Shown piece by piece: positions 55,601-64,000 of a stretch of 64,000 nt of DNA. A program made the position numbers. The DNA is from Acidobacteriota bacterium (GTDB lineage Bacteria; Acidobacteriota; UBA4820; DSQY01). Numbering within the stretch: position 1 is the stretch's first letter; each line of letters opens with the position of its first letter. The stretch is from assembly GCA_049967655.1 (NCBI GenBank), contig JBMFSH010000008.1, positions 39,268-103,267 on the forward strand. The letters are read 5' to 3'.

Positions 55601-58600
55601 CACCTCTGGAGAGCTGGCTGTGGCTGGGCCTCTCGGGGCTCATCGGCCTGACCCTCGGGGACAGCTTCCTCTTCCAGTCCTACATCGAGCTCGGCCCGCG
55701 AAAGGCCACGCTCATCATGTCCTCCTGGCCCATCTTCTCGGCGCTCATGGGCATGGCCTTCCTGGGGGAGTCCCTCAGCTGGCTGGAGTTTCTGGGCATC
55801 CTCGTAACCCTGGCCGGCATCTCGTGGGTGGTGCTGGAGAGAAGCCCCACGACGGGCCCCGTCAGAATCGGGAGGCTCGGCCGAGGCACGGCCTTCGCAC
55901 TCGGCGGGGCGTTCTGCCAGGCCGCGGGATTGGTGGCGGCCAAGGAGGGCCTGAGGGAGGGCGTGAGCTCTCTCTCGGGGACCCTCATCCGCATGGTCGT
56001 GGCGACCTTGGGAATCCTCATCGTGACCGTGGCCCTCGGCGGCGTGCGGGAGAGCTTCGACAAGCTGAGGGACCGCCGGGCCCTGCTCTATACGGCCTGT
56101 GGCGCCGCCACGGGGCCCTTCGTGGGAGTGTGGCTCTCCCTGTACGCCGTGAGCCACGCCAAGGTGGGGGTGGCGTCGGCGCTCATGGCCCCCGTACCCG
56201 TCCTGCTCCTCCCTTTGGTATGGATCTTCTTCAAGGAACGCATCTCCAGGCGCGCGTTTTGGGGAACCCTGGTGGCCTTTCTGGGGGTGGCCATTCTCCT
56301 TCTGGAAAACTGACGGCCCGTCACCCGATCGGGCGGCCCTCCTTGCGCCGCCATAACTCGTACCGCGCGTTTTGGTAAATCGGTTCGAAGCGCCGCGTCA
56401 GGTAACTCCGCCACGCCTCGCCCCCGCCGAAGCCGGCGGGCTGGGCGATCCAGTCGGTCCGGCTGCGATCCAGCGCGGAGATGGCCTCCGAGACCTGCGA
56501 CGGCGTCGTGACGTCGGGGGGAAGGAAGACGTCAAACGGAGCGGGTGAGGGGTGCCCCGTGAGAACGTTCAGCATGCCCATGAAACCCGTCGCGAAGAGC
56601 GGCACCCCCGGGCGCAGCCGGGCCGCCACCGCGTCCACGATCCCCTGCAGATCCGCCGCCTCCGAACGCGGGAGAGGCCCCACCGCCCCCGCCGGCGTCA
56701 TCACCATAGGACCCCGTTCGCTCAGGAGTCCCGGCAGGCGGGCCAGTCCAGCCCCCGCGAAGACGAGGATCACGGCCCCGGCCGCCAGCCCGGCCGCGCG
56801 GCGCTGACGGTCACCGCGGCCGGCCCACCGCTCCAGGCCCCACGCGGCGGTCAGCCCCGCCAGCGGGAGAGCCCACTCCAGGTTCACCAGGGCCAGGCAC
56901 CTGAAGGTGGGAAGGAGGAAGGCACACGCACCGGCCGCCAGGAGATAGAAACGCCAGCCGATCTCGCGCCGGCGTGTCAGGCCCGCGGCGAAAACGACCC
57001 AAGCCGCCGCCGTCTCGCCGGCCACGAGGAGCACCTTGGCATTCCACAGGCCAAAGGCCACGGGCTCCCGCCGGAAGATCCCCGTCCTCCAAAGGGCGGC
57101 CACCTCCCTCGCCATCCGCGCGAAGCCCGCTACGTTGTCGGCGAAACGATGATAGCGGGACAGCGGGAAGAGGGCCCAGTCATAGAGGAGCGTAGCGGCG
57201 GACACGCGGGGCAGGAGCCAGCACGCGAGCGCCGCGAAGAGGGCCCCGGCGCCGGCGGCCGCGGCCGCCGTGAGACGGGCGCGGGATTCCCTGGGCGCGG
57301 CCAGGAGGCACCAGAGCGCCAGGCCCACGAGCAACAGGCCTCCCTGATCCTGAAGGGTCATGGCGCACAGGGCCGCCAGGGCTCCGCCCGTTACGGCCCA
57401 TGCGGCCCGCCCTCGGTCCGCCGCAAGATCGAAGGCCAACAGGGCCCCCAACGCGAAGACGTCCGCCAGCCAGTGGTGGCTGGGCAACAGCCAAGCCGCG
57501 ACGCCGCAGGATACCAGGGGGGCGATGGCGGCAGCCTGAAAGAGAGGGCGGGTGAGCAGGCGCCGGGAGTAAACGAGGAGCAGGGCCGCCAGGGCGGCCG
57601 AATAGAGAACCGCCACCGCACGCCCGGCCGCCACCGTCACCCCGAGCAGGCGGTAGGCGCCGGCCACCATCAGGAGCGGAAGGGGCAGAACGACCTCGAA
57701 GAAGTCCCGGTAGGGCACCTGTCCCGCCAGGATCCGCCAGCCGCCGAGCGCCACCACGCCCTCGTCTCCCAGTTCGAGCCCCCTGAGGGGCGAGGCGAGA
57801 ACCATGGCCACCGACAGGGCGGCCAGGATCACCGGCAGGTAGCGAAGGCAGCCCGAGGCCACCCGACGCACCTTTCCGCCGGCTCCGGCCGTGCCCGCCG
57901 CCCCGCCTCGTGCGACCATACCGCCTCCTTCTTCTCACAGCCTAGCGCGGGCGTGAGCTTCCGGCCAGGGCACAAGTACTCCGCCTCGTCTCCAGCCCCC
58001 GCTCGAAGCCTCTTGACTTCGGCTTCAAAAGGTCTATATTTGCCACAAGTTCAAAGCAGGCGGGCGGTCCGCGGTGCTTTGGAACCATAGGAGCTGGAGG
58101 GGCCGGGATCGCTTCCCGGCGAACAGGATGGAACAAGAGCAGCCACCAAGTCCCGCCGCCCTCAAGAAGAAGAGGGCATTACAATATGTCGGATCCTTTG
58201 GCCTCGCTCATTTCCAGCGAGGCATTGTCGTTTCTGGAGACCAAGTCGGCGAGGCACCCGGCATGGAGCCGGGGCCGCAGGGAGGCCGCCATGCTGGATA
58301 GTCCAGCACCATCATCACCCCCGTCAGGAAGGTCGTCCTATTTCCCCGAGGCCACCGATGAGCAGTGGAATGACTGGCGGTGGCAATACCGAAACCGCAT
58401 CAAGGACCTCGAGACGCTCCACCGCCTCCTTCCCTACTCCAAGAGCGAGTACCAGCAGCTCAAGCTCCTCTCGCCCAGCCTGCACGTGGGCATCCCTCCT
58501 TACTACCTGAGCCTCATCGATCCGAGCGATCCCGAGGATCCCGTTCGCAAGCAGGCCGTCCCTTCGATCCTGGAGTACACCTACCGGAGCGTGGGCATCG

Positions 58601-61600: not shown

Positions 61601-64000
61601 GGACCGATCGGAATTGAAGCAGATGCTGGAGCGGGCGGGCGTTTTCCGGACGGAGGAGATCGAGGTGGCCCTCGAGCTCATCGACGTGGCGCTGGCGAAG
61701 CCGGGACAGACCGACTACTCCTTTCTGGTGGCCGAAGGGGAAGACGGCAAGGTGGCGGGGTACGCCTGCTGGGGGGCCACGCCGTGCACGCTCGGGACCT
61801 TCGACCTCTACTGGATCGCCGCCGATCCGACCGTCCACGGAAAGGGGGCGGGGCACGCCCTCCTTCTTCGCGCGGAGGAGGAGATGCGCCGCCGCGGCGG
61901 CAGGCTCTGCGTCATCGAGACCTCCTCCCTGCCCCAGTACGAACCGGCGAGGCGGTTCTACCTGCGCCACGGGTACAAGGTGGCCGCCGAGATCCGGGAT
62001 TTCTACGCGCCGGGCGACCACCGCGTCATCTTCACCCGCGCGCTGGGGGGATGATATAGAGAGATCATGGATGAGGGATCGTTGAGAGATGGAAAGTGCC
62101 AAGCTCTAAATCCCGTCCTGCGTGGTTCTGTTCAATGTGCATTTCACCATTCGTCTTCTCCCCCAACCTTGCGAAGGCGCGGTTCTGGTATCTATAATCG
62201 TCAATGAATGGAGGTGTGCTATGAAAATGCGCTGGGGCATGAGGCTCACGCTGGTGTTGAGCACGGTTCTCTTGTTGGTTCTTCTGGCGGCCTGCGCGAA
62301 GAAGGCCCCTCCGACCTCCACGCCATCGGCCGCGGAAAACCCATCCGCCGCCGCACCTTCCACTGGCTGGACACCTGAGGCCCCAACACCCTCCCTCTCC
62401 GTGGAGAGCAGCGCGGACGCCTTCAACAAGCAGGGCGTTCTCAAGCGCATTCACTTCGACACGGACAAGTGGGCCATCCGTCCCGAGGACCGCGAGATCC
62501 TCAAGCAGAACGCGGCCTGGCTGCTGGCGCATCCCCAGTTCCAGGTCATCGTCGAGGGGAACTGCGACGAGCGGAACACGGAGGCCTACAACCTTGCCCT
62601 CGGCGAGCGCCGGGCCAATGCCGCCAAGGAGTACCTGATCGGCCTCGGCGTGGCGGCCAGTCACATCCAGACGGTCTCCTACGGGAAGTCGCACCCCCTG
62701 TGCACCGAGCACACGCCCGAGTGCTGGCAAATTAACCGCCGCGACGACTTCGTGCTTCAGGACATGAAGTAAGGCTCATGCGTCGAACCTTCATTCTCGT
62801 CTGTACCCTGGTTTTCGTGGTGCCTCTGTCTCTTCTTGCGGGGACCCGGGCCGACATCGACCGGCTGGACCAGCAGGTGGCGACCTTAAACCAGCAGGTC
62901 CAGCAGATCCAGGGGCAGGTGGCCGCCATTCAGAAGAGCCTCCAGGAGATGAACGGCCGGCTGGAGGCCATCGCACGCTCCGCTCAGACGGCCGATCTCC
63001 GGGCGGATGTGGAGGATCTCAAGGCTCAGGTGGAGGTCTTGTCGACCCAGCTCGGACAGTTGAAGTCCGGGGGGGAGGAGCGCGCTCCCGCGCCCCCCGC
63101 GACGGCTCCCGCGTCCGCCGCTGAGCCGCAGGGCCGGCAGCCGCAGTCCACCCCCCCCCCTCCGGAGGGACCTGCGGCACCGCGCCCGCGCGTCGCCCAG
63201 TCCGCTCCCCCTGACGCGACTCTCCAAGGGGTCAGCCCCGAACTGTACAACCAAGCCTACAGCGACTACCTGCAGGGCAAGTACGAGCTGGCCTCCTCCG
63301 AATTCCAGCAGTTCATGGAGGCATTCCCCAACGATCCCAAGGCGGGCAACTGCCAGTTCTGGATGGGGCAGTGCGCCTACAACCAGAAGAGGTACGCCGA
63401 CGCCCAGCAGGCTTTCGAGACGGTGATCCAGCGTTACCCCACCAGTCCCAAGGTGCTGGCGGCGCGCCTGAAGCTGGGCCTGACCTATCTTTCCCTGAAT
63501 GAGACGGCCCAGGGCATCGCTACCCTCAAGGCGCTGATTCAGGCCGCGCCCAACAGCGACGAAGCGCTCATCGCGAAGGACCGGCTGTCCCGGCTCCAGG
63601 CGCCTTAGATAAGGATACCGCACAGAGTGTAGACTCCGGCGGCCGGCTGAAGAAGCCGGCCGCATTGTTATGCCCTAGGCCGGGATTCCACCGAGAAGGC
63701 CCGGCGCCGCGTCCTGGCCGCCGCCGGACCAAGGCCCTCACCAAAAGCCAAACCCGCTTCCTGGCCTTGCAAGGGTGGAAACCTCCCCGTTTTTCCGGCA
63801 CCTCCTCGACTGGCGCCCTCTCTTCGCTTTTCGCTGCAAGCGAAAAGCGGCGTCCCGGCGCCGATGGGCCTCATGCAAGGAAGCTGAGGCGGCCGCACCG
63901 GAAGCGTACTCCCTGTACGCTGAGGACGCGCCCGGCGAAGGCCCCCAGCGCCGCGCCAAAGGCGCGGCCTAGACCCAGCCGTGGTTCGGAGCCGGCAAGG

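Follow-up and report, generated by a model that had tools for sequence, protein, structure and literature searches.

The 64,000-nucleotide stretch of an Acidobacteriota genome analysed here (the window) contains four overlapping plus-strand open reading frames, read within the window, which encode a KamA-type aminomutase, two ATP-grasp ligases with the fold of D-Ala-D-Ala ligase (Ddl) and a GNAT acetyltransferase. An operon of this composition had been claimed in the genome-wide survey's note and is indeed present (Table 1). Two sigma-70-like sites were found, compared with 0.4 in shuffled sequences, both counts resting on consensus match only. While one lies upstream of kamA, the other (62169-62198) precedes pal, which thus has a promoter motif of its own, so that the operon unit is bounded there. 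In an RNA library a single 392-base contig of a relative covers 59409-59800 over the kamA-ligA junction, which does not demonstrate a single transcript. No plasmid match was found at E 1e-40.

Table 1. Features of the kamA-ligA-ligB-GNAT locus in window coordinates.
Feature	Position	Strand	Length (aa)	Remarks
Sigma-70-like promoter motif	58013..58040	+		TTGACT-16-TATATT; upstream of kamA; 10/12 positions match consensus
Operon kamA-ligA-ligB-GNAT	58291..62054	+		97558-101321 on contig C8
KamA, radical-SAM/PLP 2,3-aminomutase family	58291..59547	+	418	TIGR00238; alternative ATG 58186
LigA, Ddl-fold ATP-grasp ligase	59525..60526	+	333	PF07478; motifs E-[YFW]-D, FNIAEG, RE, EGSSKG, NPLPG...D
LigB, second Ddl-fold ATP-grasp ligase	60568..61584	+	338	PF07478; alternative GTG 60523; motifs FNxxE, AKW, NPNPD
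GNAT acetyltransferase	61569..62054	+	161	Family of PDB 2R7H

In HMM searches KamA exceeds the cut-off of TIGR00238 (352 bits versus 199.2). The lysine 2,3-aminomutase model TIGR03820 (AblA/KamA) is its top-scoring equivalog, matched over profile positions 2-371 of 417 with 483 bits, which is below the cut-off of 525.4; the models for glutamate 2,3-aminomutase, arginine 2,3-aminomutase and EpmB also give scores below their cut-offs (439, 373 and 239 bits versus 650, 600 and 369.3). The Clostridium-type lysine 2,3-aminomutase 2A5H is matched with E 4.9e-135. Using residue numbers checked on the 2A5H alignment, the CxxxCxxC motif and the equivalents of R134, S169, R198, D293, D330 and K337, the PLP lysine included, are conserved in 139/139 operon KamAs. 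We take Asp293 and Asp330 to bind the side-chain amine of the substrate in lysine 2,3-aminomutase, and presumably this pair would also be compatible with arginine or ornithine. Judged by family and residues, the most likely reaction is the conversion of lysine to beta-lysine.

The two ligases share 32% identity. Both score below the cut-off of the D-Ala-D-Ala ligase model TIGR01205 (124 and 92 bits; cut-off 245.65) and far below those of all Van models. The AlphaFold model of LigA (pLDDT 93.6) finds Ddl structures as its top Foldseek matches (TM about 0.75-0.8, 22-27% identity), and LigB groups apart from both LigA and Ddl in a quick tree supported by SH-aLRT only. The Ddl catalytic residues K97, K144, E180, K215, R255, D257, E270 and N272 are retained by both proteins, as is the equivalent of Glu15. 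Based on the Ddl fold and the residues for ATP, Mg and the acyl-phosphate, LigA and LigB are predicted to be ATP-grasp amide ligases. The positions that change are His63, Ser150, Tyr216 and Gly276, which we assume to be substrate-site residues of Ddl. His63 is replaced by Glu in 148/148 LigA and 148/151 LigB sequences, and Tyr216 is substituted in both ligases (Arg or Trp; Trp in 151/151 LigB). Changes at Ser150 and Gly276 are confined to LigB, where Gly276 is D or C in 151/151; in the underlying residue table the class lacking KamA includes a few mislabelled loci (L044, L057, L063). The exchange of His63 for Glu would create an acidic first site, suited to a dibasic substrate.

The true ddl is encoded elsewhere (contig C18, E 1.4e-70), in agreement with the survey's statement that the ligases stand apart from it. 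A predicted LigA-LigB complex scored 0.24 against a mark of 0.32, a value that speaks neither for nor against binding. For a naturally occurring LigA-LigB fusion, AlphaFold folds each of the two domains (pTM 0.54) and packs them without confidence, a result equally silent on binding. At E 1e-30 or better the LigB profile matches 3,886 clusters (50% identity), with LigA and some true Ddl among them. Databases label these ligases 'D-alanine-D-alanine ligase', even in genomes without MurF.

The GNAT matches 2R7H, a 'putative D-alanine N-acetyltransferase', with E 1.3e-33 (1.4e-53 using an alignment). This name appears to be a guess from gene neighbours, and our literature search found no publication on 2R7H. 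RimI/Ard1-like similarity is weak (RimI, E 6e-9). The AblB model TIGR03827 does not match the GNAT at E 0.001, while the positive control (L233) reaches 339 bits.

The four-gene set is present in several bacterial phyla. Among 80 GTDB loci, in which genes were assigned by best match so that ligase cross-matches are not counted, we find KamA in 79, LigA in 79 (plus one frame-fused to KamA, L068), LigB in 78 and GNAT in 68. All four genes follow the window's order in 67 of the 80, and 10 of the 12 loci without GNAT stop at a contig edge. The recurrence claimed by the survey is thereby borne out, and the ligase counts answer its concern that the two genes match each other. The apparent KamA-LigA fusion of L068 seems to result from a frameshift where ligA begins and does not enter the fusion count. 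Among the best 150 LigB representatives there are 17 LigA-LigB fusions and 9 fusions with this GNAT family; LigB is fused to another GNAT type in at least 7 more. In 80 metagenome LigB loci, many of them on short contigs, this GNAT occurs in 36 and KamA in 57.

Of the 29 genomes of the host's order, counting G000, 18 have LigA next to LigB and one more has the pair on two contigs; pal-cpoB lies downstream of the operon in this order. The survey's description of a fixed set holds for near relatives and fails for distant loci: G071 and G091 have KamA-LigA without the remaining genes, and of 20 distant Acidobacteriota loci with LigA-LigB nine have no adjacent KamA. Six of these nine genomes carry KamA elsewhere; family f34 (3/3) has only a below-cut-off relative. 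At least five gene orders hold the partners together. In the sister genus g2 LigA-LigB-GNAT is absent as a block in 4/4 genomes, with pal retained. Neighbour families were derived from clustering and a rough gene caller that missed some genes; the annotated ones include neither a conserved precursor peptide nor a conserved target or exporter. The ESM Atlas returned generic names only.

Of 81 Dehalococcoidia genomes, 12 have an above-cut-off KamA; these are exactly the genomes with LigA, the two genes are always adjacent, and none of the other 69 has them. None of the 12 contains Ddl or MurF, compared with 38 of 81 overall, which supports the conclusion that the operon does not serve peptidoglycan chemistry. 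In G071 and G091 a second KamA adjoins LigA despite another KamA-family gene in the genome, and G091 encodes a separate AblA-AblB fusion that passes both cut-offs. An EpmA-length GenX ORF is missing from 7 of the 12, which calls for some other use of beta-lysine in these genomes; all five Dehalococcoidia with EpmA fall within the 12. A GenX match in G033 proved to be a lysyl-tRNA synthetase.

KamA probably has a second role in the host. According to the accessible part of PMC12856214, EpmA is a tRNA-synthetase paralogue that uses (R)-beta-lysine. As in the EpmA/EpmB system, where a 2,3-aminomutase produces beta-lysine, the window's genome has EpmA and a PGKG-type EF-P; it has no separate EpmB, and this KamA is its sole KamA-family gene, hence KamA probably also supplies beta-lysine for EF-P lysylation. 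Unlike E. coli EpmB, which has Glu at the position of Asp330, it is LAM-like. In the host's order EpmA-length matches occur in 28, KamA in 27 and ligase pairs in 19 of 29 genomes. Nine genomes with EpmA keep KamA without ligases, so that its presence requires no ligase, and genus g2, which lost only LigA-LigB-GNAT and kept KamA and EpmA, likewise points to a role in EF-P.

An accessory gene provides a hint of the product. In 13 loci, which belong to three lineages, a gene for a GNAT-deacetylase fusion adjoins the operon or sits within it; in L243 and L245 it separates kamA from ligA. Among solved structures the best full-length matches of the fusion protein are acetylpolyamine amidohydrolases (6PHR, E 1e-76), the predicted activity. 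The fusion occurs in 2 of the 12 operon-bearing and 0 of the 69 other Dehalococcoidia and is absent from the window's genome. In L187, L196 and L206 the gene immediately upstream of ligA encodes an arginine decarboxylase; L187 also has an agmatinase and a broken deoxyhypusine-synthase-like gene. Neither spermidine synthase nor deoxyhypusine synthase has a match in G091 or G108, which argues against a home-made polyamine as a general acceptor. Replacement of spermidine synthase by the operon was rejected, with that enzyme in 6/12 operon versus 35/69 other Dehalococcoidia. PF09043 (beta-lysine 5,6-aminomutase) had no match in the genome, nor did the control return any.

We propose, with a probability of about one half, that the four genes constitute an ATP-grasp, non-ribosomal route to a small cationic acetylated beta-lysine amide. 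From the genes, residues, co-occurrence and fusions observed we infer its substrates, step order and physiological role as follows. KamA would isomerise L-lysine to beta-lysine. LigA, which accompanies KamA even when the remaining genes are missing, may then activate the beta-lysine carboxylate as an acyl-phosphate, the chemistry of its fold, and join it to an amine, most simply that of a second beta-lysine or else of another basic amino acid or a diamine. LigB would form another amide bond, distinct from that made by LigA; acetylation of a free amine would fall to the GNAT, a frequent fusion partner of LigB. The acetylpolyamine-amidohydrolase-like protein, in genomes that encode it, could take the acetyl group off again, making the charge of a polyamine-like molecule switchable. 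In the host's order the same KamA probably feeds beta-lysine to EpmA for EF-P. The presence of the deacetylase gene in 13 loci, together with the reshuffled gene orders and the LigA-LigB and LigB-GNAT fusions, suggests a single pathway and a reversibly acetylated, polyamine-like beta-lysine amide. Of the acetylated beta-amino-acid peptide suggested by the survey, a single pathway with amide formation and acetylation is thus retained, as indicated by fusions, reshuffled orders and joint loss, while the product is a proposal.

The accessible part of PMC10522769 describes actinomycete streptothricin and epsilon-poly-beta-lysine, where an aminomutase beside a ligating enzyme also leads to cationic beta-lysine amides; NRPS-type adenylation domains are used there, in contrast to the ATP-grasp ligases and acetylase found here. 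MysD of mycosporine biosynthesis, as far as available descriptions go, is another case of a Ddl-like ATP-grasp enzyme recruited to make a small metabolite, with different substrates and neighbours.

It is unlikely that KamA is a mere neighbour serving EF-P while LigA, LigB and GNAT act on other substrates, e.g. a polyamine and a non-lysine acid. The wider spread of EpmA and KamA than of ligase pairs in the host's order would fit, as would those LigA-LigB loci that lack a neighbouring KamA, some of which have arginine decarboxylase in its place; the strict KamA-LigA co-occurrence in Dehalococcoidia, seven of them without EpmA, an adjacency that outlasts gene-order reshuffling, and the second KamA beside LigA in G071 and G091 argue against it. 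We consider it similarly improbable that the ligases attach beta-lysyl or acetyl-beta-lysyl groups to a macromolecule, be it a lipid, a surface polymer or the side chain of a protein, in the manner of RimK or EpmA. ATP-grasp enzymes are able to modify proteins, deacetylases of the accessory-gene fold can act on them, and the GNAT resembles RimI/Ard1 weakly, yet the fold is that of Ddl, a small-molecule ligase, and the annotated neighbour families offer no precursor, target or exporter. Nor do we favour a store or buffer of beta-lysine, i.e. a reversible acetylated oligomer controlling EF-P supply or removing excess: an acetylase with a deacetylase suggests a cycle, and the five EpmA-bearing Dehalococcoidia all carry the operon, but EpmA is missing from the other seven, and genus g2 keeps KamA and EpmA while lacking the module.

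The two remaining explanations have very little probability. An alternative, Van-like peptidoglycan dipeptide would account for the Ddl fold, the substituted Tyr216 and the downstream pal-cpoB; it conflicts with the absence of Ddl and MurF from operon-bearing Dehalococcoidia, the low Van scores, and a pal that has its own promoter motif and remains after module loss. The plain N-epsilon-acetyl-beta-lysine osmolyte pathway with passenger ligases is hardly credible either. Aminomutase and acetyltransferase do share one operon, as in ablAB (PMC3543383, accessible part). However, compared with AblA/AblB (TIGR03820 and TIGR03827) two ligases lie in between, and the 161-aa GNAT is of another family and length and fuses to LigB, not KamA. 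Since it is unrelated to AblB and a true AblA-AblB fusion coexists with KamA-LigA in G091, the survey was right to set the operon apart from this osmolyte.

Our literature search found no description of the four-gene set; a 2009 survey may mention it, and the accessible parts of a negamycin preprint, the Pelobacter genome paper and an Omnitrophota preprint do not describe the operon. As a more far-reaching and rather doubtful extension of the proposed amide route, the genes might define a new class of bacterial polycations, in which two ATP-grasp ligases make beta-lysine dimers, short oligomers or beta-lysyl-diamines that are switched by acetylation, act like polyamines in many anaerobes including wall-less Dehalococcoidia, and draw on a pool common with EF-P activation. 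With four soluble enzymes the pathway is directly accessible in vitro. An identified product would correct the 'D-alanine-D-alanine ligase' label of a large ligase family and extend the routes to beta-amino-acid amides by one that uses ATP-grasp enzymes, and it may reveal a metabolite common to anaerobes.

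The operon comprises four overlapping genes, located where the genome-wide survey's note had placed them, and sigma-70-like motifs are predicted 5' of kamA and before pal, the next gene after the operon. The arrangement operon-pal-cpoB is conserved across the family; tolB was not seen between the GNAT gene and pal-cpoB. Divergent from the operon promoter lies the gene of a membrane protein of 532 aa that matches neither Pfam nor NCBIfam models. The host genome (completeness 99%) holds a single KamA-family gene, the operon's own, and its true ddl sits apart on contig C18, in agreement with the note. 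The nearest LigA relatives derive from Acidobacteriota MAGs (93-95% identity).

Coordinates of the operon and associated features (window positions unless a contig, C, or fetched locus, L, is named)
Feature	Location	Strand	Remark
532-aa membrane protein	56321-57919	-	divergent
sigma-70-like motif	58013-58040		predicted; 5' of kamA
kamA	58291-59547	+	first operon gene
ligA	59525-60526	+	second operon gene
ligB	60568-61584	+	third operon gene
GNAT gene	61569-62054	+	last operon gene
second sigma-70-like motif	62169-62198		predicted; precedes pal
pal + cpoB	62221-63608		downstream of operon
EpmA	C15:27891-28943		window's genome (G000)
EF-P	C34:17815-18369		window's genome (G000)
AblA-AblB fusion, 753 aa	L233:4235-6496		G091; above TIGR03820 and TIGR03827 cut-offs

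LigA and LigB share 32% identity and score far below the cut-offs of the Ddl and Van models. The top structural matches of the predicted LigA structure (pLDDT 93.6) are Ddl enzymes with 22-27% identity, and both ligases keep K97, K144, E180, E187, K215, R255, D257, E270 and N272 of E. coli DdlB. Among the domains from KamA-bearing loci, His63 is replaced by Glu in 148/148 LigA and 148/151 LigB, Tyr216 mostly by Arg or Trp in LigA and by Trp in 151/151 LigB, and Gly276 by Asp or Cys in 151/151 LigB; Asp29, Arg82 and Asp303 are additionally conserved in LigA. Because the catalytic residues of Ddl are kept while the substrate sites carry fixed changes of their own, each protein is probably an active ligase with a site of its own that differs from the D-Ala sites of Ddl, the first site being more acidic than its Ddl counterpart. 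A quick tree built from 108 rows separates the LigA-type (42 rows, support 91), LigB-type and kin (60, 89) and Ddl (2, 98) groups and places the window's ligases beside Chloroflexota rows, which suggests transfer of the operon unit. Single LigB-like ligases (often with NPNP[QE]) accompany a Peptidase_Mx protein, without KamA, at L124:5336-6352 and 11 other Planctomycetota loci, forming a sister system. A different tandem ligase of two LigA-like halves is found at L118:3298-7060, followed by gamma-glutamyltranspeptidase and N-formylglutamate amidohydrolase, and in proteins P0012, P0016, P0046, P0075 and P0081.

KamA resembles the Clostridium-type lysine 2,3-aminomutase 2A5H (E 4.9e-135) and aligns without Cys268 and the C-terminal part of the latter. 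Its best model is TIGR03820 (483, below the cut-off of 525), and it lies even further below the cut-offs of the glutamate, arginine and EpmB aminomutase models. The three cluster cysteines and the equivalents of R134, S169, R198, D293, D330 and K337 are present in 139/139 aligned operon KamAs; position 330 is Glu in E. coli EpmB. D293 and D330, which we take to bind the side-chain amine of the substrate, do not separate lysine from arginine or ornithine. Long KamA-family proteins (595-635 aa) with an N-terminal extension, outside all named aminomutase models, occur at L222:4717-6618, L223 and L235:4457-6241.

The same-order set described by the note holds for near loci, with all four genes in the window's order in 67 of the best 80 GTDB loci. 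These are close kin, and sampling was therefore widened to Planctomycetota, metagenomes and distant Acidobacteriota, where order and content vary. LigB profile matches occur in 45/101 Planctomycetota genomes (14 ligase-pair loci fetched, 12 with KamA, 9 with GNAT), and metagenome loci chosen by the LigB motif hold KamA in 57/80 and operon-type GNAT in 36/80. LigA profile matches occur in 41/121 Acidobacteriota genomes, including the unpublished G235 and G259, and KamA is adjacent in 11/20 loci fetched from other Acidobacteriota families. The orders found include KamA-A-B-GNAT, A-B-GNAT-KamA, A-B-KamA, A-(two-component genes)-KamA-B and KamA-A facing B. The best 150 LigB representatives include 17 LigA-LigB fusions and nine fusions of LigB to operon-type GNAT; at least seven further fusions join LigB to a different GNAT type. 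At L157, L160, L171, L175, L178-L180, L186, L195 and L197 a PAS histidine kinase and a sigma-54 response regulator lie between ligA and kamA-ligB, and GNAT is absent nearby. Cysteine-rich DUF3109 adjoins the operon in Chloroflexota and Planctomycetota (L044:4756-5379, L024, L028:4745-5317, L093:8663-9199, P0062); in one protein it forms a fusion with LigB.

Whole-genome comparison of 81 Dehalococcoidia, selected at ≥90% completeness and as kin not independent, bears on the alternatives. LigA is present in 12 and LigB in 10 of these 12, and above-cut-off KamA occurs in exactly the 12, adjoining ligA. An EpmA-length GenX frame is found in 5/12 but 0/69 others; the ligases are therefore the evident customer for beta-lysine in the other seven, so that KamA is unlikely to be their mere neighbour. 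A role in peptidoglycan synthesis is removed by the absence of both Ddl and MurF from all 12 operon genomes (each present in 38/81 overall) and is highly improbable. The same applies to the plain AblAB osmolyte pathway, which the note had already set aside: the operon GNAT has no match to the AblB model, and G091, which with G071 is one of two near-complete small genomes that have kamA-ligA only, carries a separate AblA-AblB fusion, indicating that the classical route is a distinct system. G071 holds a long frame similar to this fusion. That the ligases tag a macromolecule is as doubtful as the neighbour reading, and a beta-lysine store slightly more so.

KamA probably has a second task. The window's genome encodes EpmA above cut-off and EF-P with the PGKG lysine, and EpmB is not present. 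Among the 29 genomes of the order, EpmA-length matches occur in 28, KamA in 27 and the ligase pair in 19; in sister genus g2, pal-cpoB directly follows kamA and ligA-ligB-GNAT is missing as a block. The LAM-like KamA seems to supply beta-lysine for EpmA/EF-P throughout the order, which raises a question of stereochemistry. Clostridial LAM produces (S)-beta-lysine. PMC12856214 reports (R)-beta-lysine as the EpmA substrate.

The operon GNAT groups with PDB 2R7H; its likeness to RimI, Ard1, EctA and a polyamine acetyltransferase is too weak to name a substrate. No recurring exporter, precursor peptide or carrier protein was found among annotated neighbour families (65/70 most frequent clusters, 74/113 further linked genes and 53 genes around distant Acidobacteriota loci). 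A GNAT-deacetylase fusion (575-580 aa) does recur; among solved structures, acetylpolyamine amidohydrolases are its best relatives over the full length. It was seen in 13/240 examined loci: ten from Dehalococcoidia, one metagenome locus with a different gene order, and the rest from two Acidobacteriota families, between kamA and ligA. It is present in 2/12 operon Dehalococcoidia genomes and 0/69 others, and absent from the window's genome. Arginine decarboxylase lies immediately 5' of ligA in three KamA-less loci, one of which (L187) also holds agmatinase and a broken DHS-like gene. Agmatinase and two DHS-family genes are also encoded in the window's genome, where spermidine synthase gave no match. 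The occurrence of spermidine synthase in 6/12 operon Dehalococcoidia versus 35/69 others, and the lack of matches for it or DHS in genomes G091 and G108, argue against a general polyamine acceptor. At L099:4963-6204 a peptidyl-arginine/agmatine-deiminase-like gene is immediately 5' of the ligase pair and KamA.

We give a probability of about one half to a pathway, with substrates that we infer throughout, in which LigA would couple beta-lysine to an amine, LigB would extend the product and GNAT would acetylate it to a small polyamine-like amide, an acetylation that could be undone. Beta-lysine oligomers, as described in PMC10522769, are made by adenylation-domain enzymes, in contrast to the ATP-grasp ligases here. 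The literature searched, with thin coverage of subscription papers and supplements excluded, gave no description of the kamA-ligA-ligB-GNAT operon. Iyer, Abhiman, Burroughs and Aravind reportedly surveyed ATP-grasp neighbourhoods in 2009 and may have included it, so that priority for the observation is uncertain. The operon represents an uncharacterised, widespread ATP-grasp pathway that is simple to test.
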